Shown: positions 5,877-54,187 of the stretch, one piece after another
Numbering within the stretch: position 1 is the first letter of the stretch
Layout of the letters: the number at the start of each line of letters is the position of its first letter
From: Escherichia phage vB_EcoP_EP32B
Sequence record: OR544955
Strand: one strand, 5' to 3'
DNA: 64,000 bases
Notes under the pieces: generated by a model
Databases searched by the model: none
What the model saw: the letters and a program-made list of their open reading frames with translations, nothing else
Told to the model about the DNA's origin: nothing
Program-made: the position numbers and the translations under genes

Positions 5877-5903
5877 GATAGTCTCCTTCCAATATGAAAT
5901 TGG

Positions 5904-5911
5904 TATAAATA
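5904..5911 (+). promoter_or_regulatory. T4-type late promoter TATAAATA upstream of gene 4/2 ORF
   Basis: exact TATAAATA about 27 bp before ATG 5938, followed by AGGAGG. Confidence 0.5.
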
Positions 5912-5918
5912 ATAATAC

Positions 5919-5926
5919 TATTTATA
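5919..5926 (-). promoter_or_regulatory. T4-type late promoter TATAAATA (minus strand) upstream of gene 53
   Basis: plus-strand TATTTATA reads TATAAATA on minus strand, about 43 bp upstream of gp53 start; divergent arrangement with the gene 4 promoter. Confidence 0.45.
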
Positions 5927-5937
5927 AGGAGGACAAC

Positions 5938-7875: not shown

Positions 7876-8610
7876 ATGGAGCTAATCTTTTTAAGTGGCA
7901 TCAAACGTAGCGGTAAAGACACTACTGCTGATTACATCAATTCAAACTTTAAATCCGTAAAATACCAATTGGCATATCCGATTAAAGACGCTCTAGCAAT
8001 AGCCTGGGGACGTAAACATGCTGAAAATCCTAATGTATTCACAGAGTTGAAATACGAATACTTTGAAGGCATTGGATACGACCGTGAAACACCATTAAAT
8101 CTCAATAAGTTGGATGTTATTGAATTATTGGAAGAAGCGCTAATTTATTTGCAAAGCCAATATTTACCAATTAATAATGTTAAAGTATTATCATCGTTAG
8201 AAGGTGGATATTCATATCTAGATATTAAACCGTATGAAGCCCTGCGTGAAGCTATAAATAATATCAACGACACATGGTCAATCCGCCGTCTTATGCAAGC
8301 CCTCGGTACGGATGTTGTCGTTAATTTATTTGACCGTATGTATTGGGTTAAACTTTTTGCATTAAACTATATGGATTATATTGGAAGTGATTTCGATTAC
8401 TATGTCGTAACCGATACACGCCAAGTCCATGAAATGGAAACCGCTAGAGCGATGGGTGCTACAGTTATTCATGTGGTTCGCTCTGGTACGGAATCCACCG
8501 ATAAACATATTACAGAAGCTGGGTTGCCTATTGAAGAAGGCGATTTAGTTATTACAAACGACGGCTCTTTAGAAGAGCTTTATTCTAAAATTGAAACAAT
8601 CTTAAGGTAA
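7876..8610 (+). CDS. 1: deoxynucleoside monophosphate kinase gp1
   Basis: 244 aa; MELIFLSGIKRSGKDTTADYI P-loop; C-terminal region matches recalled T4 gp1 closely. Confidence 0.9.
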   Translation: MELIFLSGIKRSGKDTTADYINSNFKSVKYQLAYPIKDALAIAWGRKHAENPNVFTELKYEYFEGIGYDRETPLNLNKLDVIELLEEALIYLQSQYLPINNVKVLSSLEGGYSYLDIKPYEALREAINNINDTWSIRRLMQALGTDVVVNLFDRMYWVKLFALNYMDYIGSDFDYYVVTDTRQVHEMETARAMGATVIHVVRSGTESTDKHITEAGLPIEEGDLVITNDGSLEELYSKIETILR

Positions 8611-24322: not shown

Positions 24323-25303
24323 ATGTTCAACGTTCAAATCAAAAAAGGTATCTATCGTAATAACGAAATCTCTGGTTCTTATGTTGCCACAAAGACCTGG
24401 TTCCCGGCAAAGCTTAATCCTGAATGTTCCCACTTAGGTGATGGTAAAATTTTCGTTATGATTGATGGTTCTGAACGTGGAGTATGGGTCTTCAAATCAG
24501 ACATCGTAATGGAAGGAGTTGAGACATCACCGGTTGCAGTTGTTGAAAGCACTGAAGATATGAAAACTCGTATCAACAAACGCTTTAAAGTAATGAACAT
24601 GATGACGAATGGCATTATCGATGGTAAAATTCGTTCACTCATTATTTCAGGTGCAGCTGGTATTGGTAAGACGTATTCTCTGGATAAAGCACTTAATAAC
24701 GCTAATGATAATGGTTTCATCAAATACAAAAGCATTAATGGTAAAATCTCCGGTATTGGCCTTTACGAACAACTTTGGCTCAACCGTGATGCAGACAGCG
24801 TTCTCTTAATCGACGACGTTTACGTATTCTCGGATATGGACATCTTGAACCTTCTTAAAGCAGCATTAGATACTGGAGATAAACGCAAAGTTTGCTGGAG
24901 CACGGCGTCATCTTATCTCGATGATAAGGGTATTGATAAAGAATTTGAGTTTGAAGGTACTATCGTTTTCATTACAAACGTTGATATCGATAAAGAGTTA
25001 GAACGCGGTTCGAAACTTGCTCCGCACCTTCAAGCTTTAGTATCTCGTTCAGTGTATCTCGACCTTGGAGTACACTCTAATGAAGAGATTATGGTTCGAG
25101 TTGAAGATGTAATATTATCTACTGACATGATGCAGAAACGTGGTCTGACGGATGCAGAAACGTATAAAGCATTGTCCTGGATGAAGGCTAACGTATCTCG
25201 TCTTCGCAATGTATCATTACGTACGGCTCTTTATGTAGCAGATTTTATTTCAACTGATAAAGATGGTTGGGAGGAAATCTCCGAAGTAACTTTACTGAAA
25301 TAA
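24323..25303 (+). CDS. P-loop ATPase with N-terminal extra domain
   Basis: Walker A GAAGIGKT, Walker B VLLIDDV; ORF 24302..25303 with start MFNVQ after GGAGAATAAA. Confidence 0.65.
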   Translation: MFNVQIKKGIYRNNEISGSYVATKTWFPAKLNPECSHLGDGKIFVMIDGSERGVWVFKSDIVMEGVETSPVAVVESTEDMKTRINKRFKVMNMMTNGIIDGKIRSLIISGAAGIGKTYSLDKALNNANDNGFIKYKSINGKISGIGLYEQLWLNRDADSVLLIDDVYVFSDMDILNLLKAALDTGDKRKVCWSTASSYLDDKGIDKEFEFEGTIVFITNVDIDKELERGSKLAPHLQALVSRSVYLDLGVHSNEEIMVRVEDVILSTDMMQKRGLTDAETYKALSWMKANVSRLRNVSLRTALYVADFISTDKDGWEEISEVTLLK

Positions 25304-34210: not shown

Positions 34211-34519
34211 ATGATTAGTTTTGAGATTGAAATTTATGGCATCCCTGAAGAAGTAGGACGTTGTCCAGGATGTTATACTGTTACAAAACTTTTAAAGGAA
34301 CTCAATGCTCCTTATACATTTTATAAAGTCCTCACTAATAATGGTAAGATTGAATATGACCGTCCTTTAATCGTATCTCTTGCTAAACGTGCAGGATTCA
34401 CTTCACTTAATATTCGTTATCCTGTCATATTTTTAAATGGTAAGAAACAAAAGAATATTGCAGAGTTTAAAAAGTCCTTGATTTCATTAGGATACGACTC
34501 TGATATCATAGAAGATTGA
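34211..34519 (+). CDS. glutaredoxin-like protein (NrdH-like?)
   Basis: CPGC redox motif near N-terminus, about 100 aa, adjacent to nrdG. Confidence 0.5.
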   Translation: MISFEIEIYGIPEEVGRCPGCYTVTKLLKELNAPYTFYKVLTNNGKIEYDRPLIVSLAKRAGFTSLNIRYPVIFLNGKKQKNIAEFKKSLISLGYDSDIIED

Positions 34520-34545
34520 CCAGGTGCTGCCTGGTCTTCTTTATC
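34519..34545 (+). terminator. possible terminator hairpin
   Basis: ACCAGG-TGCTG-CCTGGT followed by a T-rich tract. Confidence 0.4.
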
Positions 34546-34685
34546 CCATTTCTAATATAATCCATTGGAATCTTCACTTCACTATCTCCTTGTGCCCCTC
34601 TCAAATCAAAAATATTTTCATAAAACAGTTTACATCCTCAATAGATATGTTAAGATTAACACCATCTACCACAGAGGAAAATAAA

Positions 34686-34868
34686 ATGACAATTGAAGAT
34701 AAAGAAATTAAGGCTGACCAGTACTATTCTGTCAACGGTAATGCAGTACAGATAACCAGAGTTTCAAGCCTGGATGTTTGGTACCGTTCAATCAAATATC
34801 CAGAAATTGGTGAAATGCTTTGTGACCGTGGTATCTTCTGTTCAATTGCGAAGGAAATTAAGCCATGA
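34686..34868 (+). CDS. hypothetical protein (60 aa)
   Basis: start MTIEDKEIK after GAGGAAAATAAA; upstream CAGTTTAC promoter. Confidence 0.5.
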   Translation: MTIEDKEIKADQYYSVNGNAVQITRVSSLDVWYRSIKYPEIGEMLCDRGIFCSIAKEIKP

Positions 34869-35092
34869 TTAGTTTAGATTCAAAGAAAGTTGTTCTAACC
34901 CTTAAAGTTAATGCGATTTGCATGTTGAAATTGCTAATGGCGTTCGTACTTATCAAGCAAATAAAACTCATTGGGATTATATCCCGATGTTGACGCTTAC
35001 TCAGCGTTTAGAATCAATCGGTCTTAAAGACCTTTCAGTAAGTGAAGTGAATTTTATCAAACGCGTTGTATCAATCAACCTCTGAGGTACTT

Positions 35093-35254
35093 ATGGGTAA
35101 AACGTATCGTCGTAAAGATTTGAAAGTTCGCGATTATGACTATTTTGGTAAACGTAAAGCTCCTGACGGTGTTAGCCACAAAGACATGGTTGAAAACATA
35201 TTCCGCTCTGATAAATGGAAGCGTATGAAAGGCGTTGATTCTGAAGTCAAATGA
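35093..35254 (+). CDS. hypothetical basic protein (53 aa)
   Basis: start MGKTYRRKDL after GAGGTA. Confidence 0.45.
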   Translation: MGKTYRRKDLKVRDYDYFGKRKAPDGVSHKDMVENIFRSDKWKRMKGVDSEVK

Positions 35255-35255
35255 A

Positions 35256-35384
35256 ATGAATCGACAACTCCGCAAAGAAGTTCGTAAGTTGAAAAAAGAT
35301 GTTTACAGTAAAGAAGAGTATGATTATAATACTTCTCATACTGAAGCCAAACGTAAAGCTAACGAATGTTATCGTTACAGTTGA
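35256..35384 (+). CDS. small basic protein (42 aa)
   Basis: MNRQLRKEVRKLKKD...; below track cutoff. Confidence 0.3.
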   Translation: MNRQLRKEVRKLKKDVYSKEEYDYNTSHTEAKRKANECYRYS

Positions 35385-35391
35385 GGAAATT

Positions 35392-35526
35392 ATGAATATC
35401 AAACGAATGCTTTTTAAGCAGGGATTATATACTTTAAATGTTAATCCAAAGGGTGATACAACTAAATGGTCTGTAAATGACTGGATTAAGTTCATCGATG
35501 AAAATGGGGCGTGGAACACAAAATGA
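35392..35526 (+). CDS. small protein (44 aa)
   Basis: MNIKRMLFKQG after GAGGAAATT. Confidence 0.35.
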   Translation: MNIKRMLFKQGLYTLNVNPKGDTTKWSVNDWIKFIDENGAWNTK

Positions 35527-35723
35527 ATCCTGAAAATATTGTGTCATGGCAACTTCGTGAAGAACGTGCCGAATTCTTTGCCAATATGAAACTCAACGGT
35601 GTTGAGGATGAAGACTTTTTACGTTGGTTCTGGATTTACAAATACAAAGAATGCCAACATGCTGTGCTATTGACTTGCGCAGTTATGTACGAAGGCTGGA
35701 AAGGCGCTAAAAAGTTCGGTTAA
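35523..35723 (+). CDS. hypothetical protein (66 aa)
   Basis: ATGA overlap; MNPENIVSWQL. Confidence 0.45.
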   Translation: MNPENIVSWQLREERAEFFANMKLNGVEDEDFLRWFWIYKYKECQHAVLLTCAVMYEGWKGAKKFG

Positions 35724-35786
35724 TAATATACAACGATAGGAAGATAATAACATGACTTCCTATCGTCTTAAAATGAGGAAAATATC

Positions 35787-36026
35787 ATGGCCCAAGAATT
35801 AGATTTTATCAAATTCAAAAAACACCTCGACGTTAAAATTGGGGATTCAATTGTTAGGATTGAGTATGACATTTTAACAGATGCTATTACTGTTAGTTGT
35901 GATGGAAATAGTTTCAGCTTCGATACAACCGAAAACAAATACCCAATATATAAAGGTATCTTTGATATGGGTGTCGATATCAGCCCACGCGATACAAATT
36001 ACTTGCTTTTCATGCTTAAAAAATAG
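35787..36026 (+). CDS. hypothetical protein (79 aa)
   Basis: ORF with GAGGAAAAT Shine-Dalgarno. Confidence 0.5.
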   Translation: MAQELDFIKFKKHLDVKIGDSIVRIEYDILTDAITVSCDGNSFSFDTTENKYPIYKGIFDMGVDISPRDTNYLLFMLKK

Positions 36027-36055
36027 TGTACAGACTCTTGAGAGCAGAGTATAAT
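36027..36055 (+). promoter_or_regulatory. early promoter
   Basis: GTGTAC -35 variant and GAGTATAATG -10. Confidence 0.4.
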
Positions 36056-36092
36056 GCCCTCGTTGGATAATAAAATAACCGAGGAAAATAAT

Positions 36093-36425
36093 ATGTCTAC
36101 TAAAATCAAAAACGTAGTTAATTCTTTCGCTTTCGATAAAGTTGTTGCTCTTCTGGAATCCGGCAATATTGTTACTCCTCAAGTTCTTGACGCGTGGGAA
36201 TTCCGTCTTTATGAAATCATGCAAAAACACGACCAGAAAATTGGACGTAATTCTATTCGTGAAATTCTAGTACAATATATTCTTTCTGAATTTGACGTTG
36301 CTGCATTTGGTGTTGAATCTAAAGCTTATCAGAAACATGAAATCTCTGAAAAGACTATCCGTCGTATGAAAAATCAACGTAAGAAAAAATTCGCTGACTT
36401 GAAAATTGTTAAGGCGGTAAAATGA
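36093..36425 (+). CDS. hypothetical protein (110 aa)
   Basis: start MSTKIKNVV after GAGGAAAATAAT. Confidence 0.55.
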   Translation: MSTKIKNVVNSFAFDKVVALLESGNIVTPQVLDAWEFRLYEIMQKHDQKIGRNSIREILVQYILSEFDVAAFGVESKAYQKHEISEKTIRRMKNQRKKKFADLKIVKAVK

Positions 36426-36649
36426 GCGTATTAACAGAAACTTTGATTAATGACCTGCGTCTAGCTGGTTACGAAGTTGGTACAAATAGCCTAGGTCTTC
36501 CTCAGATTGAAGGTCCTGGATTTATTTTGGAATATGAATTCAAACAATGGTGGTTATATGCTACGGTTGACGATGCGTTGAATATTGATTTCGTTGACCA
36601 ATTTGATTCGCTGGATGCTGCTCTTGAAGCAGCAAAGGAACTAGAATGA
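36422..36649 (+). CDS. hypothetical acidic protein (75 aa)
   Basis: ATGA overlap. Confidence 0.5.
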   Translation: MSVLTETLINDLRLAGYEVGTNSLGLPQIEGPGFILEYEFKQWWLYATVDDALNIDFVDQFDSLDAALEAAKELE

Positions 36650-36915
36650 AATTAACTCGAATCAGTATAACTGAAGAAAAGCTGGGCGAATTTTATGTTG
36701 ACGAATACATGAAAGTTACGTATTTTCCATTCGTTAAAGGTGTTGGTTTTTGGGAAACTCATGTATCTCAATTAAACGAAGGCGACTATAACGAAACACA
36801 TGAGAACTTTTTAGATTTTCTTTATAATGCCGGTCTTACTGAGCTTTATATCGATATCCATGAGTTCAAACGTTTAATGGAAAAAGTGTTTCAGGCTTAT
36901 TGTTTGCTCCGATAG
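36646..36915 (+). CDS. hypothetical protein (89 aa)
   Basis: ATGA overlap. Confidence 0.5.
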   Translation: MKLTRISITEEKLGEFYVDEYMKVTYFPFVKGVGFWETHVSQLNEGDYNETHENFLDFLYNAGLTELYIDIHEFKRLMEKVFQAYCLLR

Positions 36916-36922
36916 TATCTCG

Positions 36923-36958
36923 TGCTTTAAGATAGGTCTCTAAATATTATGATATAAT
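36923..36958 (+). promoter_or_regulatory. possible MotA-dependent middle promoter for gene 55
   Basis: TGCTTTA MotA-box-like element about 20 bp upstream of GATATAAT; inverted repeat AGGTCT...AGACCT. Confidence 0.4.
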
Positions 36959-36987
36959 AGACCTATGAATTGAGCCAAGAGGTACTT

Positions 36988-37545
36988 ATGACTGAACAAA
37001 AACCTAAAAATAACTATGTGAATAATAAAGAGCTTCTCGCCGCTATAATCGAGTGGAAAAAGGAGCTCTTAAATAATAAAGACCCAAACAAAATTATTCG
37101 TCAGAATGATACCATCGGTTTAGCAATTATGCTTATCGCCGAAGGCCTGTCCAAACGTTTCAACTTTTCAGGATATACCCAGTCTTGGAAGCAGGAGATG
37201 ATTGCAGATGGGATTGAAGCCTCTATTAAGGGACTTCATAATTTCGACGAAACTAAGTACAATAACCCACATGCATACATAACTCGAGCTTGTTTTAATG
37301 CTTTTGTCCAACGTATCAAAAAAGAACGTAAGGAAGTTGCAAAGAAATATAGTTACTTCGTTCATAATGTCTACGACAGTCATGACGATGATATGGTAGC
37401 GTTGGTAGATGAAACGTTTATTCAAGACATCTACGATAAAATGACGCATTATGAAGAATCCGCTTATAAAGCTCCTGGGGCTGAAAAGAAGGAAGTTGTT
37501 AGCGATTCGCCTAGTTTGGATTTTTTATATGAGGATGACAATTGA
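36988..37545 (+). CDS. 55: late transcription sigma factor gp55
   Basis: [63 protein letters not shown]..., matches recalled T4 gp55. Confidence 0.9.
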
Positions 37546-37744
37546 CATCTCTAACTACTTAGAAGAACCTTTTGACGAAGCAATCCCTTATTTGGTAAAA
37601 CTGTTGGGTCGTGAATTTAAAATTAATTTTGACATCGACCCTTTGAACCCACACGACGTGTCATTTTCGATAAATGGGACTCCAGTTGAGTACGAGTTCT
37701 GTATTGAAGAGGATGGACGTTTTTATTTTAATTTAATGAGATAA
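37529..37744 (+). CDS. hypothetical protein (71 aa)
   Basis: frame of ORF 37451..37744; start [10 protein letters not shown] overlapping gp55 end. Confidence 0.4.
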
Positions 37745-37745
37745 T

Positions 37746-38069
37746 ATGACTACCGAGATTATTGAAAATAAAGAAGCAGAAGATGCAGTAGCTAAAATGC
37801 TACAAGAAATCCAAAAGAAAAATGAAGCTGAAGCACGTAAAAAATCCGAAAAGATTCTTAAAAAGAATCGTTTTGAACTAAACCGTCTTTATGCTCACGC
37901 TCAAGAAGCAGCAATTCAAAACAACTTCGAAGCTTACGAATATGCTATTAAGAAATCTCGGGATATTCTACGACAACCATATAATGACAAGTTAATTAAA
38001 ATCCAGTGGGTTACTACTCGTCAGGCTATTGAGGACATTATTAATGGCGCTAGTTCAAACAAAGTTTAA
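37746..38069 (+). CDS. hypothetical protein (107 aa)
   Basis: charged helical ORF. Confidence 0.5.
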   Translation: MTTEIIENKEAEDAVAKMLQEIQKKNEAEARKKSEKILKKNRFELNRLYAHAQEAAIQNNFEAYEYAIKKSRDILRQPYNDKLIKIQWVTTRQAIEDIINGASSNKV

Positions 38070-38250
38070 ACGTCTGAAACTGAACGCAGGGTTCACCCTT
38101 AAATTGGGAGGTCCTCTTTGTGTTAAAATTTCTGAAAAGGAATATCACGACGGTTCTATTACAGAAATTTGTCCGCCTATTGTAAAGGCAGACCCAAAAC
38201 AACTCGTATGGGTCGATTCATTTCAAGTTAAGAAATGGTGGAAACGATGA
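38044..38250 (+). CDS. hypothetical protein (68 aa)
   Basis: frame of ORF 38029..38250, start MALVQTKFKRL. Confidence 0.4.
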   Translation: MALVQTKFKRLKLNAGFTLKLGGPLCVKISEKEYHDGSITEICPPIVKADPKQLVWVDSFQVKKWWKR

Positions 38251-38289
38251 GAGAAATTGATTTAGGCATTTTCTGAGAGGTGCTTATGC

Positions 38290-38463
38290 ATGACGAACAT
38301 CCCGACTTCTGAAAATTTCGATAAAATCCGTAAAGGCAAAGCAGAAAGAATGAGACGTTTTAAAGAGTCTTATGATAAAGCTAAAGCCGAAGGAACTATT
38401 ACATACAAGCCCATTCGATTTAAAAGTTCAAATGAGCCTCTGTACGGCGTACTATGTGGATAG
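38290..38463 (+). CDS. small basic protein (57 aa)
   Basis: MTNIPTSENFDKIRKGKAE...; GAGGTG upstream; ends at terminator. Confidence 0.35.
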   Translation: MTNIPTSENFDKIRKGKAERMRRFKESYDKAKAEGTITYKPIRFKSSNEPLYGVLCG

Positions 38464-38487
38464 GAACTCTTCGGAGTTCCTTTTTTT
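38463..38487 (+). terminator. UUCG-tetraloop hairpin terminator
   Basis: GGAACTC-TTCG-GAGTTCC followed by TTTTTTT. Confidence 0.6.
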
Positions 38488-38533
38488 GCTTTATAAACGG
38501 ATGATAGAATGAATTAATTAATGAGGAAATAAT

Positions 38534-39553
38534 ATGAAAATTTTGCACTTAGGCGACTTCCATATCGGAGTCAAACAAGACGACCCATGGGTTCAAGATA
38601 TTCAACGTGATGGTATTCGTCAAGCAATTGAATACTCTAAGAAACACGGGATTAAAACTTGGATTCAGTACGGTGATTGGTTTGACGTCCGTAAAGCAAT
38701 AACGCATCGTACAATGGAATTCAATCGTGAAATCGTTGATATGATTTCTAAAGCAGGCATTCACGTTCATGTCACGATAGGAAACCATGACATGGCGTTT
38801 AAGAATACAATAACACCTAACACTGTTTCTGAATTGTTAACTCAATTTGAAAACTTTACTATTTACGAACATCCAACTACTGTAGATTTTGACGGATGTC
38901 TGATTGATATCGTTCCATGGATGTGTGAAGAAAATACAGGTGAAATCTTAGAGCACATCAAGACTTCTTCTGCGGCGTATTGTGTTGGTCACTGGGAACT
39001 GAACGGCTTCTATTTCTATAAAGGAATGAAGTCTCATGGGCTTGAACCTGATTTCTTAAAGACCTATAAACAAGTTTGGTCCGGCCACTTCCACACAATC
39101 TCTGAAGCTGCTAACGTCAAATATATTGGAACACCGTGGACCCTTACTGCAGGCGATGAGAACGATCCTCGCGGATTCTGGGTATTTGACACTGATGTTG
39201 AACGTATGGAATTTATTCCTAATGAAACAACATGGCATCGACGAATCACTTATCCATTTAAAGGCAAAATCAATTATTCTGATTATACTAATCTAGCCGT
39301 ACGTGTTATAGTATCAGAAATTGATTCAGAGTTGACTAAGTTTGAATCTGAACTTGAAAAAGTAGTTCACTCTCTTCGTATGGTTTCTAAAGTTGATAAC
39401 AGTGTTGAATCTGATGACGACCAGGAAATCGAGATTAAATCACTTCAAGATATCATTAAAGAATATATTGACGCGATTCCGGATATCTCAGACGAAGACA
39501 GAGAAGCGCTGGTCAAATATTCAAACGAACTTTATATTGAGGCAACACAATGA
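38534..39553 (+). CDS. 47: recombination nuclease subunit gp47 (Mre11/SbcD-like)
   Basis: 339 aa; phosphoesterase motifs LGDFHIG, GDWFD, GNHDM. Confidence 0.9.
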   Translation: MKILHLGDFHIGVKQDDPWVQDIQRDGIRQAIEYSKKHGIKTWIQYGDWFDVRKAITHRTMEFNREIVDMISKAGIHVHVTIGNHDMAFKNTITPNTVSELLTQFENFTIYEHPTTVDFDGCLIDIVPWMCEENTGEILEHIKTSSAAYCVGHWELNGFYFYKGMKSHGLEPDFLKTYKQVWSGHFHTISEAANVKYIGTPWTLTAGDENDPRGFWVFDTDVERMEFIPNETTWHRRITYPFKGKINYSDYTNLAVRVIVSEIDSELTKFESELEKVVHSLRMVSKVDNSVESDDDQEIEIKSLQDIIKEYIDAIPDISDEDREALVKYSNELYIEATQ

Positions 39554-39807
39554 CTTTAGATGAATTTAACAATGCCGGGCTTGGGCTTGAAGTTGAAATA
39601 GACGTTAAAGATGATGATGGATTCGAGAACACTATTAAGTATTGGATTGAGCCATTACGCGTTGAAGGCAATGAAGTTAAAGCCGTTCATGTCTGTACCG
39701 ACTGGGCTATTGAATTTAGCTTTAATATAATGGACACTGATACTCCTGGCTCTATTCTTAAAATGGCTGAAGCGTGTATTGAGGATGCGTATAATGACGA
39801 AGACTGA
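39550..39807 (+). CDS. hypothetical acidic protein (85 aa)
   Basis: ATGA overlap with gp47. Confidence 0.5.
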   Translation: MTLDEFNNAGLGLEVEIDVKDDDGFENTIKYWIEPLRVEGNEVKAVHVCTDWAIEFSFNIMDTDTPGSILKMAEACIEDAYNDED

Positions 39808-40015
39808 TTATGAAATCCATCGTCATGAATTTAGTATTGGTGACGGTTATATTGGTATAGTTTTATGAGGAGACAACTCCTCGTTTCTTTGGAACCATGT
39901 ATGTTACTTGTGAGTACGCACCAGGTGTTGTTATGTATGCAGAACTAGATGAATATTTTGCTGATAGAGATGACATGTTAAAATATGTAGAGGACTTCAT
40001 TCGAAGAGAATACAT

Positions 40016-41578
40016 ATGAAATCATTTAAATTAAATCGTGTTCGTTATCAAAACATCATGTCAGTAGGTGGGAATCCTATTGATATCCAATTAGATAAAG
40101 TCCAAAAGACATTAATCACTGGTAAAAATGGCGGTGGTAAATCTACGATGTTAGAAGCCATTACTTTCGGACTTTTCGGTAAACCATTTCGTGATGTTAA
40201 GAAAGGACAAATCATTAATAGCATGAACAAGAAAGAGCTCTTAGTTGAGCTTTGGATGGAATTCGATGATAAAAAATACTTCATTAAACGTGGCCAAAAG
40301 CCCAATATTTTCGAAATCTCCGTTGACGGTGTTCGTCTCGATGAATCTGCCAGCAGTCGTGACTTCCAAGAAGAATTTGAACGTAGCATCGGAATGTCAT
40401 ACGCGTCTTTTAAACAAATCGTTGTGCTTGGGACGGCAGGGTATACCCCTTTCATGGCTCTTAGCACCCCTGCTCGTAGAAAGCTTGTTGAAGACTTATT
40501 AGAAGTTGGCACACTCGCTGAAATGGATAAAATCAATAAGTCTCAAGTTCGCGAACTTAATTCTCAGGGACAAGTTCTTGATGCCAAGAAAGATGGTATT
40601 ATCCAACAAATTAAGATTTATAACGAGAATATCGAACGTCAAAAGAAATTATCTGGTGATAATGTAGCGCGTCTACAGAATATGTATGACGACCTAGCCA
40701 AAGAAGCTCGGTCATTAAAAGCAGAAATCGAAGAAGCTAATGAGCGACTACTTAATATCGTTCTTGATGAAGACCCTACTGAGGCATTCAACAAGATAGG
40801 ACAAGAAGCATTCTTGATTAAATCTAAAATTGACTCATATAACAAAGTTATTAAGATGTATCATGATGGCGGTACATGTCCTACTTGTGCATCACAGTTG
40901 CACCAGGGTGACCCTATTGTCTCTAAGATTACCGATAAGCTTCATGAATGTAATCACTCATTCGAGCAACTTACATGTCACAGAGATAATCTGAGTGTCC
41001 TAGTGGACGAATATAGAGCTAATGTCAAGACTAAACAGGACCTTGCATCTGATATTCGTACCAAGAAACAAGCAATGATTGCCACTATTGATAAAGCTAA
41101 GAAAGTTAAAGCTGCAATAGAACAAGCCTCAGCAGAATTTATCGACCATGCCGATGAGATAGCTTTGCTTCAAAAAGAACTTGATAAAATCATTAAAACA
41201 AAATCGGATATCGTTCTTGAAAAATACCATCGTGGTATTATCACAGATATGTTAAAAGATTCTGGTATTAAAGGTGCTATCATTAAAAAATATGTGCCTC
41301 TGTTCAACAAGCAGATTAACCATTATCTTAAAATCATGGAAGCTGATTACGTGTTTTCTATTGACGAAGAATTCAATGAATCTATAAAATCACGTGGCCG
41401 TGAAGAGTTCAGTTATGCTTCATTTAGTCAAGGCGAAAAAGCGCGTATCGATATCGCATTGTTGTTTACATGGCGAGATATTGCTGAAAAGGTCTCTGGT
41501 GTTAAAATCAACACAACGTGTTCATTATTTCTCACAGAGACCATGACCCACAAGCTTATGGACAACATCTTCAAATGA
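40016..41578 (+). CDS. 46: recombination ATPase subunit gp46 (Rad50/SbcC-like)
   Basis: 520 aa; Walker A GKNGGGKST, long coiled-coil, CPTC zinc hook. Confidence 0.9.
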   Translation: MKSFKLNRVRYQNIMSVGGNPIDIQLDKVQKTLITGKNGGGKSTMLEAITFGLFGKPFRDVKKGQIINSMNKKELLVELWMEFDDKKYFIKRGQKPNIFEISVDGVRLDESASSRDFQEEFERSIGMSYASFKQIVVLGTAGYTPFMALSTPARRKLVEDLLEVGTLAEMDKINKSQVRELNSQGQVLDAKKDGIIQQIKIYNENIERQKKLSGDNVARLQNMYDDLAKEARSLKAEIEEANERLLNIVLDEDPTEAFNKIGQEAFLIKSKIDSYNKVIKMYHDGGTCPTCASQLHQGDPIVSKITDKLHECNHSFEQLTCHRDNLSVLVDEYRANVKTKQDLASDIRTKKQAMIATIDKAKKVKAAIEQASAEFIDHADEIALLQKELDKIIKTKSDIVLEKYHRGIITDMLKDSGIKGAIIKKYVPLFNKQINHYLKIMEADYVFSIDEEFNESIKSRGREEFSYASFSQGEKARIDIALLFTWRDIAEKVSGVKINTTCSLFLTETMTHKLMDNIFK

Positions 41579-47797: not shown

Positions 47798-48273
47798 ATG
47801 AAAACTACTCCTATTACTATCGCTATTGACGCAATCATAAAACAAGCTTCTTCTTTGGCCGCTATGGCCAAAGTAATTAGTCAAAACCCTGCTCGTTATA
47901 ATGCTATTCTAGAAACTCTTCGACGCCCTGGACTGAGTAATTATGAAAGTCGTGTAATTATTACAGGTGTTGGTAAGAACGCTAATATCGCAACTAAAGC
48001 TTCCGAGACATTTGCTTCACTCGGTATCCCGAGTATGTACTTGAACACTGGGCATTATTCTCACGGTGATGCAGGATTCATTGCGCCTAATGAGGCATCG
48101 CGGTAGAGGTTGATGAGAATTCTCTGGCTCCGACAATGTCTACTACATTGTTGTTAGCGCTTATCGATACGTTCGCTATCAACCTTTCGTCTGAACGTGG
48201 ATTTACCTCTAATGATTTCCTTAAGTTCCATCCAGGCGGTGCACTAGGTGCCATGTTACGAGGCGAACAATGA
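47798..48273 (+). pseudogene. SIS-domain sugar-phosphate isomerase (arabinose-5-phosphate isomerase KdsD/GutQ-like), disrupted
   Basis: N-terminal fragment RVIITGVGKNANIATKASETFASLGIPSMYLNTGHYSHGDAGFI stops at 48106; a different frame encodes the SIS C-terminus LAPTMSTTLLLALIDTFAINL...FHPGGALGAMLRG; central segment missing. Confidence 0.6.
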
Positions 48274-48454: not shown

Positions 48455-50140
48455 ATGAAAAAAGCTGTTATTCTTGGTGCTGGACTGGCAACTCGTTTGT
48501 ATCCAATAACGCATCATATTCCAAAAGTTCTTGTGAACTATAAACAAGACACTATTCTGAGCAATTTGTATACAATTTATTCTGACCTTGGCGCAGATGA
48601 AATTATTGTAGTAGTTCATTCAAAATTTGCTGAAACTGTTCGAGCTTATTGTGAGCAAGAAGGGTTCAATGTGACTATTCGTACAGTTGATGAAGCGTAT
48701 GGTTCTGCTTATGCTCTTGCTAAATTACACAAAGATTTAGATGGCCATAACGTAATTGTTAACTGGTGTGATATTATTCCTGATTTTGGTTCATGGTCTT
48801 GGAATGTTAATGCAATCTATGTTAAGGGTGACGAATGTCGATATAATTTTGACGGTGAAAATATCACTAACGTAGGTTCAACAGGTGGTAATGTTGTAGG
48901 AATTTATCAGTTCAAAGACTGGGAATTCTACATGGGTTCTACTGATGAGGAAATTCACGAATACTGCAAAGGTCGTGATTTCGTAGAATTCCTTTACGGC
49001 AGCGCATTCAATAAATCAGAGCTTATGAATCTAATTGATTTAGGTGATATGCCTAAACTTGAAAAAGCTCATGAAGTTCGTGAACTTAATCGTAGTTTTA
49101 ATGCAGTTGAAATTGGTGAAGAAACTGTAACTAAATTCGCATTAACCGAACAAGGTCGAGCTCTTCAAAAAGATGAGATTTCATGGTATTTGAAAGTGAA
49201 ATCAGATTCAGTTCCTCAGTTAGTTTCGGTAAATGAAAATAATTTTGAAATGGAACGCATTAAAGGTAAGCCGGCATTTGAATATATTAAATCCAAATCA
49301 AGTCTTGCTCGTCCACAAATTGTTGATGCAATTTTAGATGCACTGAAATTCAGCACAGACACTTATTTTGTAAGTCCTGAAACTGTTCGTCGTGATTTCA
49401 CTAAAGAATTCTATACGAAAGTTATTGATCGTTGTGAAAGCATTCAGCCATTGATTGATTCATTTGGTAAAATCACACACGTGAACTACACTAAGATTGG
49501 ACGTCTGAAGCCAATGCTGAAGCAAGCTTTAGAACATCTTATTCGTTATCATACCCGTTCTCAGGGACAGTACTCTGTTATTCATGGTGACCCGAACTTC
49601 AGTAATACTATGATTACTGATAATGGCGAAGTCAAGTTTATCGACCCTCGTGGATATTTTGGCGAAACCAAGATTTACGGGCCAAAATTGTACGATGAAG
49701 CTAAAGTGCTTTATGCTGTTTCAGGTTATGATGAATTCAACGCTAATCCGACCTGGGGACAGTTTACTATTGACGAAACAACTTGTAATGTGACTATTAA
49801 CATCAATCCATTAGTTTACAAATATGGAAAGATGAGTTCGTTTAACGAGTATCATCATTTGGCTGTAGCAATTATCTGGATTGCATTAGGTGGTTATTTC
49901 AAGAATAATCCACTTAAAGCGGTAGCCGCATATTATAAAGGTATGGAACTTCTGACTAAGCAATTACGTAACATGGGCCGTGTACTTCAAGACGGCTCTA
50001 TTAGTTATGACGTAGCAGAACCTGTAACGGCTACTCTGATTACAAAAAATCCTGGTAAATGGGTACTAACTGATAAAGAAACTGGTGTTTCTTATCGTCC
50101 AATCGGTGGCGATATCACTCATCAATGGGAACGAATCTAA
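48455..50140 (+). CDS. bifunctional sugar-phosphate nucleotidyltransferase / sugar kinase
   Basis: N-terminus VILGAGLATRLYP (NTP-transferase G-x-G-x-R signature); C-terminal kinase motifs HGDPNFSNTMI and FIDPRGYFG (aminoglycoside/choline kinase-like fold); 561 aa. Confidence 0.75.
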   Translation: MKKAVILGAGLATRLYPITHHIPKVLVNYKQDTILSNLYTIYSDLGADEIIVVVHSKFAETVRAYCEQEGFNVTIRTVDEAYGSAYALAKLHKDLDGHNVIVNWCDIIPDFGSWSWNVNAIYVKGDECRYNFDGENITNVGSTGGNVVGIYQFKDWEFYMGSTDEEIHEYCKGRDFVEFLYGSAFNKSELMNLIDLGDMPKLEKAHEVRELNRSFNAVEIGEETVTKFALTEQGRALQKDEISWYLKVKSDSVPQLVSVNENNFEMERIKGKPAFEYIKSKSSLARPQIVDAILDALKFSTDTYFVSPETVRRDFTKEFYTKVIDRCESIQPLIDSFGKITHVNYTKIGRLKPMLKQALEHLIRYHTRSQGQYSVIHGDPNFSNTMITDNGEVKFIDPRGYFGETKIYGPKLYDEAKVLYAVSGYDEFNANPTWGQFTIDETTCNVTININPLVYKYGKMSSFNEYHHLAVAIIWIALGGYFKNNPLKAVAAYYKGMELLTKQLRNMGRVLQDGSISYDVAEPVTATLITKNPGKWVLTDKETGVSYRPIGGDITHQWERI

Positions 50141-50526
50141 TGCACCGTGTAGAAAACATGCTTAATCTTTGTTTTGATGTCGATGATTGTATAACAGAGT
50201 GGAATAACAATCGTGATTACGTGAACTTCAAACCAGACGTCGAAATGGTGACTGCTATTAATGCCCTGTATGATGCAGGGCATACCATAACGCTTTACAC
50301 TGCTCGTGGTATGAAGTCAGTAGGTCCTGGTCGTATAGCAATTGACATTCTCCCAAGTCTGATTCAGAACTTGGAAAACATTGGTTTGAAGTACCATAAT
50401 TTGCTAACACATAAACCAGTATATGATTGGATTATCGACGACAAAGCTATGCGTCCCGACGAATTCAAAGCTCTTATGAATAAAGGCGAATTCGAAACAT
50501 TTAAATCATATAAACCGAATCTATAA
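50140..50526 (+). CDS. HAD-superfamily phosphatase
   Basis: motif I FDVDDCIT, later DWIIDDK; start MHRVEN overlapping upstream stop. Confidence 0.6.
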   Translation: MHRVENMLNLCFDVDDCITEWNNNRDYVNFKPDVEMVTAINALYDAGHTITLYTARGMKSVGPGRIAIDILPSLIQNLENIGLKYHNLLTHKPVYDWIIDDKAMRPDEFKALMNKGEFETFKSYKPNL

Positions 50527-50582
50527 TAATTTAAGTAAGACCTGCAAAAACCATCGCATAAATTAACGTGAGATGCAAAAAA

Positions 50583-51743
50583 ATGAATACTTTTAAAATT
50601 GGAACGAATTTTGATTTAGCTCTTCTTGATAAAATCGTAGAGCTCAATAAAACTTATCCTAATAGCTTGATAAACGAAGTATACGGCTCTACAAGAGAAA
50701 TGGCTTTTGTAGCAGCCAGACCTGATTTTAGGCTTCCTGACGTTGACAAAAAGATGTTAGAAGATTACGTTAAACGTTGTAACGAATTAGGTATTTGCTT
50801 TAACTATACACTCAACACGATAAATCCTGGTTCAAAAAGAGAACTAGTCGAGTGGAAGAAGAAAGCTATTCAGGATTATGTTCAGTATCTTTGGTCAATA
50901 GGCGTATGGCGTATTACTATCGCTAACCCTGTTGTTATGGAAATTGTTCGTGAAGTCAATAAAGACATTGAGATTGAAGTTTCAACAATTCTACATGTCG
51001 ATGCTGTAACTCAAATAAAATACTTGCATGACCAATATAATATCAAAAAGGTCTGCTGTGGAATTCATAAGAACCGTTCAGTTTCTTTCCTGAAGCGTGC
51101 AGCAGAGTTTTGCAATAAGAACAATATAATATTTGAAGTTCTTGTAAATGAGTTCTGTTCTAATGCTGGTAAAGGGTATACAACACATTGTAGCTATCGT
51201 GACTCTTGCTATATTTTCCATAGTACTGATGTTACAGCCGATGATGCTAAATCCTTAAACGGGTATCCTATGCAGCACTGTATTAAAGCTCGTGATACAG
51301 ACCCATTTAACTGGTTGAGAACTCGTTTTGTTCGTCCTCAAGATTTGAAACTTTATAATGATATTGGTATCACTCAATTCAAAGTTTCAGGACGTACAGG
51401 TAGCACAGACTACATTTTGAAAGTTCTTGAAGCATACGCTTCTGAAAAGTTTGAAGGTAATTTGTTAGAACTGTGGAAGCCTTTAGAGACTATTTTCACT
51501 CTTGAAAATGAAACTGAGTTTTCACATACAGTAAATATTGAAACCTCTTTGTTAGATGGCTTTTTAGAAAAAAGGTGGTTCAGACATCCAGATTTTGATT
51601 GTGCTAATGAAATCTGTGGATCAACGTGTACATATTGTGAAAGATATTATAAACGTCAATTATCTAAAAACGGGTTAGCAGAAAACTCTATATCTATTAT
51701 TGATATAACTAACTCTGATGACGCTTTGAGGTACCCGGAATGA
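50583..51743 (+). CDS. Cys-rich enzyme-like protein of unknown function (386 aa)
   Basis: large ORF inside the modification cluster; cysteine clusters CCGIHKN, EFCSNAGKGYTTHCSYRDSC and CANEICGSTCTYCE. Confidence 0.6.
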   Translation: MNTFKIGTNFDLALLDKIVELNKTYPNSLINEVYGSTREMAFVAARPDFRLPDVDKKMLEDYVKRCNELGICFNYTLNTINPGSKRELVEWKKKAIQDYVQYLWSIGVWRITIANPVVMEIVREVNKDIEIEVSTILHVDAVTQIKYLHDQYNIKKVCCGIHKNRSVSFLKRAAEFCNKNNIIFEVLVNEFCSNAGKGYTTHCSYRDSCYIFHSTDVTADDAKSLNGYPMQHCIKARDTDPFNWLRTRFVRPQDLKLYNDIGITQFKVSGRTGSTDYILKVLEAYASEKFEGNLLELWKPLETIFTLENETEFSHTVNIETSLLDGFLEKRWFRHPDFDCANEICGSTCTYCERYYKRQLSKNGLAENSISIIDITNSDDALRYPE

Positions 51744-52021: not shown

Positions 52022-52738
52022 ATGGGAAAACATAACACAATGAAATATATCAAAGCCGCAGATTTTCAAACCGCATTTAAAGCAGTCAATCGTGAAATTT
52101 TAGAAAACCCGGAATTCGTAACTGATTCTCGTATTGGACGTTGTAATGAAATTGGGTCTATGACAGTAGTTGTTGACACTCCATCATCATTCAAAATGAC
52201 CGACCCGCGTATTAACCGCATCTCTTATGAATATGCCGAAGACTTCTGGAAGTTTATGATTTCTGGTGGTACTGACGCAGAAGAAGCGTTTAAGGCATAT
52301 CCTAATGTCGCTAAATTTATTTCTAAACCAAAATCAGATGCTTTGCCTGCAAACTTCAACACTTTCTATGGTCCTCGCATTGCGGCCCAATTACCAGCTC
52401 TTCTAAAAGAACTTAAAGAGAAGCCTAACTCCAGAAGAGTTGTGTTCCAAATTCTAGAAAGTTCTGATCAGGCTTTGCTTGATTCGGACGAAACGCTTGA
52501 ATATCCATGTACTGACTCAGTGACTTATTATATTCGTGACGGTAAGCTTTATACCCACTGTCATATGCGTTCCCAGAACTGTGCTGTTGTTATGCAGTTG
52601 GATTTTTATCTCCAAGGAAAATTACTTCATTATATCGCTAACGAATGCGGTGTAGAAGTTGGTGATTATACTCATACCATGGTAAGTGCCCATGTGTTTG
52701 AACGTGATTTTGATTATGTTAAAGGATTCCTTGACTAA
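52022..52738 (+). CDS. thymidylate synthase-fold enzyme, divergent deoxypyrimidine nucleotide hydroxymethylase (gene 42 position)
   Basis: YPCTDSVTYYIRDGKLYTHCHMRSQNCAVVMQLDFYLQ aligns with the catalytic Cys and MRSxD region of TS / dCMP hydroxymethylase; rest of protein unlike T4 gp42 as recalled. Confidence 0.7.
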   Translation: MGKHNTMKYIKAADFQTAFKAVNREILENPEFVTDSRIGRCNEIGSMTVVVDTPSSFKMTDPRINRISYEYAEDFWKFMISGGTDAEEAFKAYPNVAKFISKPKSDALPANFNTFYGPRIAAQLPALLKELKEKPNSRRVVFQILESSDQALLDSDETLEYPCTDSVTYYIRDGKLYTHCHMRSQNCAVVMQLDFYLQGKLLHYIANECGVEVGDYTHTMVSAHVFERDFDYVKGFLD

Positions 52739-53637
52739 TGGCTATTTTCCGCGTACCAATCTTGAGTATGCGGTCTTATGAAACTGGTCAGTATGCTATC
52801 CTTAAGGATGGCAACTTCCAACTTCATTTGCACCGTGCTAATCCGGGTGATGTGATTACATATCCACGTAATGCATCTGATATTAAAGAATGCGAACGTC
52901 TTTTTCCGGAATTTAAGTTTGTTCCATTATGGTATAAAGATAACGCGTATAACACTCGTAAATATTTCTGGTCTGAAAATGAATTTGTGGTTGATTCATT
53001 AATTGCTTATTATGATTGTGATTTTCTAATCACAGATATCACTGGTTATGATGGCGCTTTTGACGTAGAATTCAATTTCAATATCACTGCAGACCCTAAT
53101 AAACCACGTTTTTATATTGATGAATTCTTAAAAACTGATATGTTGTCGGTTAATCGTTCACTTCAAACTACTGTGTTGAATGAACGTCAAAAAGAAGTGC
53201 TGGTTAACGCAGGTGCAGATGGTAATAAGATTATCGTAACGCAGAAAGTTATACGTCCTTCCGTCATGCAGCGTCTTGTAGGTGATTTGGCTCCTATTCA
53301 TCTAGATGGTATTTTTCATCCATTTCGAATTAGTGACCCATGCTATCGTTTTGAACAAGTGGTTGAATGCGCAATTCAATTAGGTCAACCGCTTTATATA
53401 ACTGATCCAAATAATAGTTTCGACAGAAATAAGTATCCTGAAGAAGCGCTGATTCGAATTTTTAATCCAACTAAAACTGAGTACTATCAAATTCTTAAAG
53501 GACGTCCGAAGATTCAATATTTCGAAAATCCTGAAGAAGTATTCCATCCAGGTCTTGGTGAGTTCATCTACTTTAATGCTTTAATTTCTTCACCGTATAA
53601 TATACCTAAATACGAAGATGTCGTAATCGAGGAATAA
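52738..53637 (+). CDS. hypothetical protein (299 aa), candidate DNA sugar transferase by position
   Basis: occupies the slot after the hydroxymethylase where T4 carries beta-glucosyltransferase; no recognised motif. Confidence 0.5.
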   Translation: MAIFRVPILSMRSYETGQYAILKDGNFQLHLHRANPGDVITYPRNASDIKECERLFPEFKFVPLWYKDNAYNTRKYFWSENEFVVDSLIAYYDCDFLITDITGYDGAFDVEFNFNITADPNKPRFYIDEFLKTDMLSVNRSLQTTVLNERQKEVLVNAGADGNKIIVTQKVIRPSVMQRLVGDLAPIHLDGIFHPFRISDPCYRFEQVVECAIQLGQPLYITDPNNSFDRNKYPEEALIRIFNPTKTEYYQILKGRPKIQYFENPEEVFHPGLGEFIYFNALISSPYNIPKYEDVVIEE

Positions 53638-53638
53638 A

Positions 53639-54187
53639 ATGGCTAAAATTATTTTAGTAGACGGGCCGGATAATGCTGGTAAAACAACTTTCATTAATGA
53701 CATAATGGAAATTAGTGAAAGATATGTAAAGATTGATTTCCCTAAACGAACAGTTGATGGGCGTTTCGATGTTAAGTCTCGAAATGAAGTCGGCTGTTTC
53801 GAAACGATGTTGAATTATTTGGACCCTACTAAGATTTATCTGTTAGACCGTGGATATATTAGTAACTGGGTTTATGGACGTATTCGACAAGATGTGGACT
53901 CGGTTCTTGACGTTTATGAACAGGATTATGTTCGTCTTTGCCAAAACCATGATGTGTTCACAATTATTTTAACACGTAACGAAATGACTGAAAGTTTTGA
54001 AGACGACCTTATTACTTTGTCTTCATTCGGTTTTAATACAGTCATTTCATATTTTGAAGAGTTTGCAATTCATAACAAAATCCAAACGTATCAATTACTT
54101 AATCATGATGGTGCTAATAAAGTTATAGGATTTAACGCAAGCGAACGTAATAATTTGATTACAGAAATCATCAAATGGGCTCGTTAA
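53639..54187 (+). CDS. P-loop nucleoside/nucleotide kinase-like protein
   Basis: Walker A GPDNAGKTT at N-terminus, LLDRGY region; 182 aa. Confidence 0.65.
   Translation: MAKIILVDGPDNAGKTTFINDIMEISERYVKIDFPKRTVDGRFDVKSRNEVGCFETMLNYLDPTKIYLLDRGYISNWVYGRIRQDVDSVLDVYEQDYVRLCQNHDVFTIILTRNEMTESFEDDLITLSSFGFNTVISYFEEFAIHNKIQTYQLLNHDGANKVIGFNASERNNLITEIIKWAR

Follow-up and report, generated by a model that had tools for sequence, protein, structure and literature searches.

Background

Phage RB69 has no homologue of a glucosyltransferase and its DNA contains arabinose (PMC6024577). Thomas et al. 2018 set out from the absence of glucosyltransferases in RB69-type phages, and later work is reported to have resolved both the chemistry and the genes (Mahler 2025, He 2026, Lee 2026). 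RB69-type DNA contains mono- and di-arabinosyl-5-hydroxycytosine in place of cytosine, shown for RB69 by LC-MS/NMR in a study that also covers the activity of gp48 and the gene cluster (PMC13326640). NicPhage DNA contains 5-ara-dC and 5-ara-ara-dC, as determined by HPLC/MS (PMC13390438). RB69 gp48 was shown experimentally to be a dCMP 5-hydroxylase that makes 5-hydroxy-dCMP (5hodCMP), phosphorylation of 5hodCMP by RB69 gp159 was demonstrated, the gp52:53-type kinase/nucleotidyltransferase was assigned to UDP-arabinofuranose synthesis, and the function of the gp45-type nucleotide kinase was predicted (PMC13326640). Two putative arabinosyltransferases were described in Mosigvirus, one at the beta-gt slot and one at the ORF003c position (PMC13390438). 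No activity on 5hoC DNA was reported for the individual glycosyltransferases of phage DLP3, and arabinosylation of the nucleotide and of DNA could not be told apart as the first step (PMC13326640). Which sugar a phage carries on its DNA decides how sensitive it is to restriction, CRISPR and type IV (GmrSD/BrxU) defences, as well as whether gene exchange between T-even relatives is possible.

We analysed a 64,000-nucleotide stretch of DNA from Escherichia phage vB_EcoP_EP32B (OR544955), referred to here as the window. The initial annotation, a reading of synteny made without tools, had proposed that both T4 glucosyltransferases are absent and that this fits a different DNA sugar, and it correctly predicted an alternative hypermodification: the relatives RB69 and NicPhage are arabinosylated, and the window encodes the published arabinosylation cluster. 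We put the probability at roughly 0.93 that this is an RB69-type phage that does not make glucosyl-hydroxymethylcytosine and whose DNA is predicted to carry arabinosyl-5-hydroxycytosine, with the chemistry taken from the literature on RB69 and NicPhage.

The interval between genes 55 and 47

In T4, as the initial annotation had stated, and in RB32, a-gt (400 aa) lies between genes 47 and 55. We found that the corresponding interval in the window is made up, as had been described, only of small open reading frames and a terminator; these are homologues of a-gt.5, a-gt.4, a-gt.3 and a-gt.2, followed by a hairpin (Table 1). The four reading frames are the counterparts of RB69 gp70-gp67 (~95-100% identity). 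A literature search gave no paper on the functions of a-gt.2 to a-gt.5. The hairpin itself spans 38462-38481 in the terminator scan, and the T-run comes next. A terminator is also annotated 3' of a-gt.2 in several relatives, and RB32 has a GC-rich hairpin (GAGCTTCGGCTCC) at the aligned place.

Table 1. Features of the window discussed in the text, in order of position.
Feature	Position	Strand	Evidence or remark
gene 1 dNMP kinase (RB69 gp159)	7876..8610	+	95.9% identity with RB69 gp159
gene 55 (late sigma factor)	36988..37545	+	left border; 185 aa, 99.5% identity with RB69 gp55; annotated in LR027383, p000v and RB69
a-gt.5 homologue, 69 aa, DUF5491	37535..37744	+	100% identity with RB69 a-gt.5; Pfam DUF5491 E 5e-13; phrog_1169
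a-gt.4 homologue, 107 aa, DUF2654	37746..38069	+	100% identity with RB69 a-gt.4; Pfam DUF2654 E 1e-27
a-gt.3 homologue, 68 aa	38044..38250	+	100% identity with RB69 a-gt.3; phrog_1648 E 2e-34
a-gt.2 homologue, 57 aa, DUF5486	38290..38463	+	94.7% identity with RB69 a-gt.2; Pfam DUF5486 E 5e-28
intrinsic terminator 3' of a-gt.2, AGGAACTC-TTCG-GAGTTCCT + T-run	38462..38490	+	terminator scan
70-nt non-coding spacer, a-gt.2 to 47	38464..38533	+	in the place of the T4-type 1379-bp a-gt + 47.1 cassette
gene 47 (SbcD-like nuclease subunit)	38534..39553	+	right border; 339 aa, 100% identity with RB69 gp47
arabinose-5-phosphate isomerase gene (RB69 gp55 homologue)	47798..48273	+	interrupted at 48093 by a gap of 159 nt that is specific to the window
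bifunctional sugar-1-phosphate nucleotidyltransferase/sugar kinase (RB69 gp52:53, 561 aa; AfhE analogue)	48455..50140	+	99.4-99.5% identity with RB69 gp53, gp52
HAD-like phosphatase (RB69 gp51, AfhF analogue)	50140..50526	+	97.7% identity with RB69 gp51; function from PMC13326640
Peptidase-U32-like protein (RB69 gp50)	50568..51743	+	99% identity with RB69 gp50; Pfam Peptidase_U32 E 7e-11
thymidylate-synthase homologue, 5-hydroxy-dCMP synthase	52022..52738	+	100% identity with RB69 gp48; E 4.5e-162 to PDB 9iqc/9ir2
299-aa GT-B fold glycosyltransferase, putative arabinosyltransferase 1 (RB69 gp46:47)	52738..53637	+	start overlaps synthase stop (TAATG)
thymidylate-kinase-like nucleotide kinase (RB69 gp45)	53639..54187	+	97.8% identity with RB69 gp45

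When the locus is compared with those of T4 and RB32, only a-gt and 47.1 are missing and the boundary is clean. The spacer contains a TATAAA motif and the ribosome binding site of gene 47. It resembles the RB32 sequence upstream of a-gt (50 of 74 columns identical, GCTTTATAAA and AATGAGGA among them) more than the RB32 sequence upstream of gene 47 (43 of 82 columns). The interval is the ordinary conserved block from a-gt.5 to a-gt.2 with its terminator, minus a 1.38-kb cassette of a-gt and 47.1.

The same arrangement is found throughout the lineage. The window belongs to Mosigvirus (RB69 group) and is 96-99% identical to RB69, p000v, the O157 typing phages and NicPhage. Positions 34224-41515 form one collinear block with RB69 44333-36996, and the 990-nt interval has a single-piece match in about 146-147 deposited genomes (95-99% identity across 80% or more of the interval), and these genomes share its four small reading frames and terminator. 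Because the interval is collinear in about 146 genomes, a-gt is absent from the whole lineage and was not lost locally.

Searches for glucosyltransferases

T4 and RB32 Agt, T4 Bgt, T4 47.1 and the RB32 T2-type transferase were compared by tblastn with the window and with the complete genome of RB69 (167,560 bp). None of the matches listed was significant; those of the RB32 T2-type transferase were listed for the RB69 genome. Matches to T4 and RB32 Agt were at chance level (best E 1.4 in the interval, 0.012 in the window and 0.042 in the whole RB69 genome), as were those to T4 47.1 in both targets. The best E for T4 Bgt (351 aa) was 1.2 in the window and 4.9 in the RB69 genome, and that for the RB32/T2-type beta-glucosyl-HMC-alpha-glucosyltransferase (280 aa) was 0.84 among the matches listed for the RB69 genome. 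No glycosyltransferase family emerged when all uncharacterised reading frames of appreciable size in the nrdC region and the cluster from gene 43 to uvsX were scanned with Pfam. Nor did tblastn, Pfam or phrog comparisons reveal a remnant of agt in the small reading frames of the interval. No homologue of T4 Agt or Bgt was found elsewhere in the window, and none of either gene in the whole RB69 genome. The absence of glucosyltransferases is correct and already known for the RB69 group, and the different DNA sugar is also published (Thomas 2018; Lee et al. 2026).

The best match to Agt in the window (24449-24688, 85 aa) lies inside the nrdC.10 homologue, a member of phrog_1250 with weak AAA/HTH hints in Pfam. 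We considered this protein as a substitute for agt and rejected it; T4 has nrdC.10 too.

A 5-hydroxylase and a predicted UDP-arabinose pathway

The base differs as well as the sugar: it would be 5-hydroxycytosine, not hydroxymethylcytosine. The gene at 52022-52738 had been called a hydroxymethylase, and that label is wrong, both here and for the lineage. Its product is identical to RB69 gp48, a 5hodCMP synthase, and is only 25% identical to T4 gp42. It is nearly identical to PDB 9iqc and has the signature of 5hodCMP synthases, L143E, D169N and N177D (E. coli ThyA numbering); the residues aligned with these in T4 gp42 are D, D and D.

Synthesis of UDP-arabinose is assigned to the genes that lie between 43 and uvsX. 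The kinase/nucleotidyltransferase and phosphatase genes are intact and 98-99% identical to those of RB69, and the isomerase gene is interrupted. The kinase/nucleotidyltransferase matches Pfam NTP_transferase (E 8e-10) and, weakly, kinase families; the phosphatase has no Pfam match. The isomerase gene gave two partial tblastn matches in different frames, corresponding to reading frames of 102 and 45 aa; the protein elsewhere is 211 aa.

Eight or more clean deletions, some of which fall inside essential genes, set the window apart from every public relative examined. Clean cuts affect genes 43, 46 and 56, a tRNA and the arabinose-5-phosphate (A5P) isomerase gene. Gaps are placed at 10870, 41515, about 46000 (27 nt, in gene 43), 48093 and 62289. 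These window-specific deletions are probably artefacts. If they were real, the interruption of the isomerase gene and of gene 56 (dCTPase) would impair the pathway. We rejected the idea that the absence of a-gt is one of these odd deletions on the basis of collinearity.

Taken together with the published work on RB69, the following route is proposed. The flavin-dependent thymidylate-synthase homologue would convert dCMP to 5-hydroxy-dCMP, which would then pass by way of the gene 1 kinase and later steps into DNA in place of cytosine. The A5P isomerase, the kinase/uridylyltransferase and the HAD phosphatase of the 43-uvsX cluster would make UDP-arabinofuranose, and GT-B glycosyltransferases would transfer arabinose onto the 5-hydroxyl. 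On this route, the lineage has no glucosyltransferases because glucosyl-hydroxymethylcytosine is not made; the phage belongs to the RB69 group, with arabinose on 5-hydroxycytosine, and for this reason has no genes for them.

A GT-B protein in the position of beta-gt

The initial annotation had also remarked that no recognisable glycosyltransferase of the size of beta-gt follows the supposed hydroxymethylase. This holds at the level of sequence but not at the level of fold, and the remark is misleading, because a 299-aa GT-B-fold protein occupies exactly that slot. The protein has two Rossmann-like domains, its structural resemblance to known GT-B enzymes extends over the full length, and it is most like GT4-type transferases in being GT4-like. 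It is recognisable as a glycosyltransferase solely by its fold. Invariant residues in the C-terminal domain (R197, K246 and H270-P271-G272) are candidate sugar-binding or catalytic residues, and homologues with 44-72% identity are found in phages of Acinetobacter, Serratia, Yersinia, Edwardsiella and Providencia. A GT-B glycosyltransferase gene immediately downstream of the synthase is a feature of the RB69-type system, and we infer that this protein is the putative first arabinosyltransferase. The corrected label of the synthase and the transferase that only its fold reveals in the beta-gt slot are what this analysis adds to what was known.

The second transferase would be a homologue of ORF003c adjoining rIIA, beyond the window. 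The ORF003c/HY126 glycosyltransferase (PDB 9iqz) had no tblastn match in the window, which ends near mrh and modA.2, and its locus between rIIA and gene 39 lies ~10 kb past that end.

It is conceivable, though unlikely, that the 299-aa protein acts on the 5-hydroxy-dCMP or dCTP nucleotide rather than on DNA. The TAATG coupling to the 5hodCMP synthase gene and the nucleotide kinase gene directly after it are compatible with a nucleotide-level metabolon. If so, the protein would be the first sugar transferase of a phage to hypermodify a pyrimidine ahead of replication.

Alternative explanations

The gaps in the window raise the concern that a-gt was lost by a local deletion or an assembly error in this sequence, with relatives still carrying it at this place. 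None of the gaps occurs in any relative examined, and several disrupt essential genes. Nonetheless, the collinearity with RB69 refutes this explanation, and neither the 147 deposited genomes with the interval in one piece nor the RB69 genome, which as a whole has no agt, leaves it any appreciable probability.

Two other explanations accept that a-gt is absent and differ about the DNA. Hydroxymethylcytosine might still be made and be glucosylated from UDP-glucose by a highly diverged enzyme, either the 299-aa GT-B protein, the ORF003c homologue or both. Against this, the thymidylate-synthase homologue is identical to a proven maker of 5hodCMP, not 5hmdCMP, and has the D169N change; a dedicated UDP-arabinofuranose pathway is encoded beside the transferase; and the DNA of RB69 and NicPhage contains arabinose, not glucose (PMC6024577, PMC13326640, PMC13390438). 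We regard glucosylation as very improbable. It is equally hard to credit that the modified cytosine (5hoC or hmC) is bare, with the sugar pathway inactive through the broken A5P isomerase gene. That gene does lack 159 nt and is left in two fragments, but its gap belongs to the set of clean cuts for which an artefact is argued above, and the 211-aa isomerase is intact in each of the six independent contigs that encode this 299-aa protein. In addition, the A5P isomerases of E. coli itself (KdsD and GutQ) could supply arabinose 5-phosphate. Arabinosyl-5-hydroxycytosine remains the preferred reading.

Comparison with known systems

The window has the gene order of RB69 and other Mosigvirus phages (p000v, O157 typing phage 3, JS09, NicPhage, Bas46/47 and HY126), which have the arabinosyl-5-hydroxycytosine system, and its proteins are 95-100% identical to theirs for gene 55, a-gt.5 to a-gt.2, gene 47 and the 43-uvsX cluster. 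There are two differences. gp46/gp47 and gp52/gp53 are split in the RB69 reference and are single reading frames in the window, as the literature expects. The gaps that interrupt genes 43, 46 and 56 and the isomerase gene are peculiar to the window and probably artefactual.

In T4, the locus of Agt (PDB 1XV5/1Y6F) has the order a-gt.2, (mobB), a-gt, 47.1, 47; RB32 has a-gt and 47.1, and mobB belongs to T4. The cassette of a-gt and 47.1 is absent from the window; in T4-type phages it sits precisely where the start codon of 47 begins the next gene. The relative of Agt by fold is at another locus in the window, and its donor and acceptor are likely to be UDP-Araf and 5hoC. T4 Bgt and the T2/T6/RB32 enzyme are encoded directly downstream of gene 42, and the 299-aa gene is in the same slot after the thymidylate-synthase-family gene. 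In contrast to those enzymes, to which it has no detectable sequence similarity, its product is GT4-like and its gene is translationally linked, through TAATG, to a 5-hydroxylase gene and not to a hydroxymethylase gene.

The same pathway logic is seen in Acinetobacter phage DLP3, which has tri-arabinosyl-5hoC, and in Shewanella phage Thanatos, which has mono-pentosyl cytosine. As in the window, a syntenic first transferase adjoins the thymidylate-synthase homologue in both (PMC13326640). The systems differ in the number of transferases, three in DLP3 and two in Mosigvirus, and in the number of arabinose units.

Interval between genes 55 and 47

We found that the interval between genes 55 and 47 of this T4-like segment, in which early and middle genes lie on the plus strand, contains four small ORFs and a terminator, as the initial annotation had described. 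The ORFs, whose names are taken from annotated near-identical genomes, are 95-100% identical to RB69 proteins. DUF5491, DUF2654 and DUF5486 are Pfam families without known function, a-gt.3 had no Pfam match, and all four ORFs (4/4) are assigned to PHROG families of unknown function. The 70-nt spacer before gene 47 contains the terminator, a GCTTTATAAA motif and a AATGAGGA ribosome-binding site.

At 95-99% identity, the interval with its flanks has counterparts in 135-151 deposited genomes, and in ~146 of these the match is one collinear piece. These genomes all belong to Mosigvirus (the RB69 group) and include p000v, O157 typing phages 3, 6 and 13, JS09, NicPhage and RB69. Collinearity matters because the window has many clean gaps of its own elsewhere, and the missing a-gt might have been another. 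Window 34224-41515 aligns with RB69 44333-36996 in one unbroken block. This block and the ~146 collinear genomes rule out a window-specific gap.

The tblastn queries for glucosyltransferases were the Agt proteins of T4 and RB32, T4 Bgt, and the T2/T6-type beta-glucosyl-HMC-alpha-glucosyltransferase. Agt and Bgt matched the 64-kb window only at chance level. Because the window is only 64 kb, we repeated the search on the full 167,560-bp RB69 genome, on which the result for the T2/T6-type enzyme rests. There, E was no lower than 0.042 for Agt, 4.9 for Bgt and 0.84 for the T2-type enzyme. That is, neither the window nor the whole RB69 genome had a significant match to agt or bgt, and none of the small ORFs is an agt fragment. 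The best Agt match in the window (E 0.012, Agt residues 211-295) is inside the nrdC.10 homologue. We rejected this protein as a hidden transferase: the E value is insignificant, the gene is also in T4, and its sub-threshold Pfam hints are to AAA/STAND NTPase and HTH domains, not to a transferase.

Features of the window and window-specific gaps
Feature	Position	Strand	RB69	Remarks
nrdC.10 homologue, 333 aa	24302-25303			phrog_1250, function unknown
gene 55	end 37545	+		left border of interval
a-gt.5, 69 aa	37535-37744	+		DUF5491
a-gt.4, 107 aa	37746-38069	+		DUF2654
a-gt.3, 68 aa	38044-38250	+		PHROG family, function unknown
a-gt.2, 57 aa	38290-38463	+		DUF5486
hairpin terminator	38462-38481			T-run; after a-gt.2
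gene 47	start 38534	+		right border of interval
gene 43	45073-47757			left of module
A5P isomerase (SIS-type)	47798-48273		gp55	arabinose-5-phosphate isomerase; broken
561-aa protein	48455-50140		gp53 + gp52	N-terminal NTP-transferase domain, weak kinase matches
128-aa protein	50140-50526		gp51	
peptidase-U32-like protein	50568-51743		gp50	
thymidylate-synthase homologue	52022-52738		gp48	
299-aa ORF	52738-53637		gp47 + gp46	
thymidylate-kinase-like protein	53639-54187		gp45	
uvsX	54286-55458			right of module
gap	6312			76 nt
gap	10870			5513 nt, begins mid-tRNA-Met
gap in gene 46	41515			87-88 nt, frameshift; 520 aa + 32-aa tail, not 562
gap in gene 43	~46000			27 nt, nine residues lost; DNA polymerase 894 vs 903 aa
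gap in A5P isomerase gene	48093			159 nt
gap in gene 56 (dCTPase)	62289			440 nt vs RB69, 250 nt vs p000v; 3' half lost
gap	62459			clean window-specific deletion

Modification module between gene 43 and uvsX

The window contains a module that is present in RB69 and not in T4, with proteins 97-100% identical to their RB69 counterparts. The 299-aa and 561-aa ORFs are uninterrupted in the window and also single in six independent public contigs, whereas the RB69 reference has each of them in two pieces (gp46/gp47 and gp52/gp53). The intact ORFs support the published claim that single-base sequencing errors split these RB69 genes.

The thymidylate-synthase homologue had been labeled a hydroxymethylase. 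This label is wrong. The protein is 100% identical to RB69 gp48 and 25% identical to T4 gp42, and it matches PDB 9iqc/9ir2 over its full length (E 4.5e-162). It has the published diagnostic residues L143E, D169N and N177D (E. coli ThyA numbering; the ThyA reference was entered by hand, and the T4 and RB69 sequences were from database records) and retains the catalytic Cys146 and Arg166. In contrast to the D169N of the window enzyme, T4 gp42 retains D169. In vivo 18O2 labelling showed RB69 gp48 to be a 5-hydroxy-dCMP synthase associated with flavin (PMC13326640). A useful correction is thus supported: the base itself differs and is 5-hydroxycytosine, not hydroxymethylcytosine.

The initial annotation had also found no beta-gt-sized glycosyltransferase with recognisable similarity after this gene. 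The 299-aa ORF located there matched neither a Pfam family at E 0.01 nor, by sequence, any PDB entry at E 10, and therefore the wording holds for sequence. It does not hold for fold. An AlphaFold2 model built with a 50-sequence homologue alignment was confident (mean pLDDT 95.1, pTM 0.89), and its top Foldseek matches were all GT-B proteins. Further GT-B structural matches were BshA (16.8), HepE (16.4) and PimA (16.0); the solved phage HY126 glycosyltransferase (9iqz) gave 14.4 and T4 DNA alpha-glucosyltransferase (1y6f) gave 13.1 over 247 residues. PDB 9iqz/9ir0 is not the orthologue of the 299-aa protein; by sequence it is the orthologue of RB69 ORF003c (E 5e-249). A second useful correction, based on the model, is that a predicted GT-B transferase, recognisable by fold only, occupies the beta-gt position.

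The synthase stop codon overlaps the transferase start (TAATG, 52736-52740) and the nucleotide-kinase gene begins one base after the transferase gene (TAAAATG), making the three a tightly coupled unit. At 36-41% identity, more distant homologues of the transferase are consistently larger proteins of about 340-380 aa, and none of them is annotated. The metagenomic contigs that encode them are large, reaching 356 kb. This distribution suggests a family that is not confined to T4-like phages and may include jumbo phages.

Window-specific gaps

Set against RB69 and p000v, the window is cut cleanly at the gap positions tabulated above, and the junctions lack microhomology. The cuts in the range from 42.9 to 63 kb are also seen when the six public contigs serve as the reference. 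Only amino acids 1-92 of 173 are left of the gene 56 product. A 446-aa plus-strand ORF (5794-7134) covers genes 4 and 2, which are separate in RB69; judged by coordinates, the gap at 6312 takes away the 3' end of gene 4, and it appears to fuse the two frames. Not every junction is of this kind: some reflect natural variation, such as the one at 58260, which a public contig shares. A T4-like phage without intact genes 46 and 56 should be crippled, and a viable phage is unlikely to have all of these gaps. The window-specific gaps are therefore probably assembly or data artefacts, and so we build no biology on the broken isomerase.

Arabinose as the probable replacement for glucose

The absence of both glucosyltransferases had been taken to fit a different DNA sugar modification. 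Our results support this: the RB69-type module is in the window, and arabinose is on RB69 and NicPhage DNA. Thomas et al. reported that RB69 has no glucosyltransferase homologue, found arabinose on its DNA and proposed that ORF003c is the arabinosyltransferase and that ORF53_52c and ORF055c are UDP-arabinose genes (PMC6024577). The chemistry was later revised by Lee et al. (2026), who identified the RB69 base as mono- and di-arabinosylated 5-hydroxycytosine and gave gp46:47 and gp3 as putative transferases (PMC13326640). In NicPhage (OY726582), 5-ara-dC and 5-ara-ara-dC were measured, and Mosigvirus has two putative arabinosyltransferases at exactly the gp46:47-type and ORF003c loci (PMC13390438). 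Across the 55-47 interval, NicPhage and the window are 98.6% identical. The lack of glucosyltransferases and the alternative sugar are already known for the RB69 group.

Our analysis covers the absence of agt and bgt, the identity of the cluster, the transferase fold and the hydroxylase signature; the chemical steps of the pathway come from the literature on near-identical proteins. The thymidylate-synthase homologue would turn dCMP into 5-hydroxy-dCMP, which the gene 1 kinase would then phosphorylate, as RB69 gp159 does (PMC13326640). The isomerase would make arabinose 5-phosphate from ribulose-5-P, and a bifunctional enzyme and a HAD phosphatase would convert it, by way of Araf-1,5-P2 and Araf-1-P, to UDP-Araf. 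The putative 299-aa transferase may place an alpha-arabinofuranose, the first of the two sugars, on the 5-hydroxyl, either in DNA or on the nucleotide, and the ORF003c homologue may attach the second arabinose. The latter had no tblastn match within the 64-kb window and lies outside it; the window ends about 10 kb before rIIA.

The locus in T4-type phages

In RB32, the gene order is 55, a-gt.5, a-gt.4, a-gt.3, a-gt.2, a-gt (400 aa), 47.1, 47; T4 has an extra mobB. Compared to RB32, the window is without exactly a-gt and 47.1. Window 38464-38536 aligns with RB32 4551-4619, upstream of a-gt. Of 74 aligned columns, 50 are identical, and the hairpin, a TATAAA motif and the ribosome-binding site are conserved. 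This match is better than that to the region preceding RB32 gene 47, which is inside 47.1. Given this homology, the difference is a clean 1379-bp cassette that starts exactly at a start codon. It consists of a-gt, a GC-rich hairpin after the a-gt stop codon (likely a terminator) and 47.1, placed exactly at the gene 47 start codon. The cassette either took over or donated the upstream signals, and either the T4 lineage acquired it or the lineage of the window lost it.
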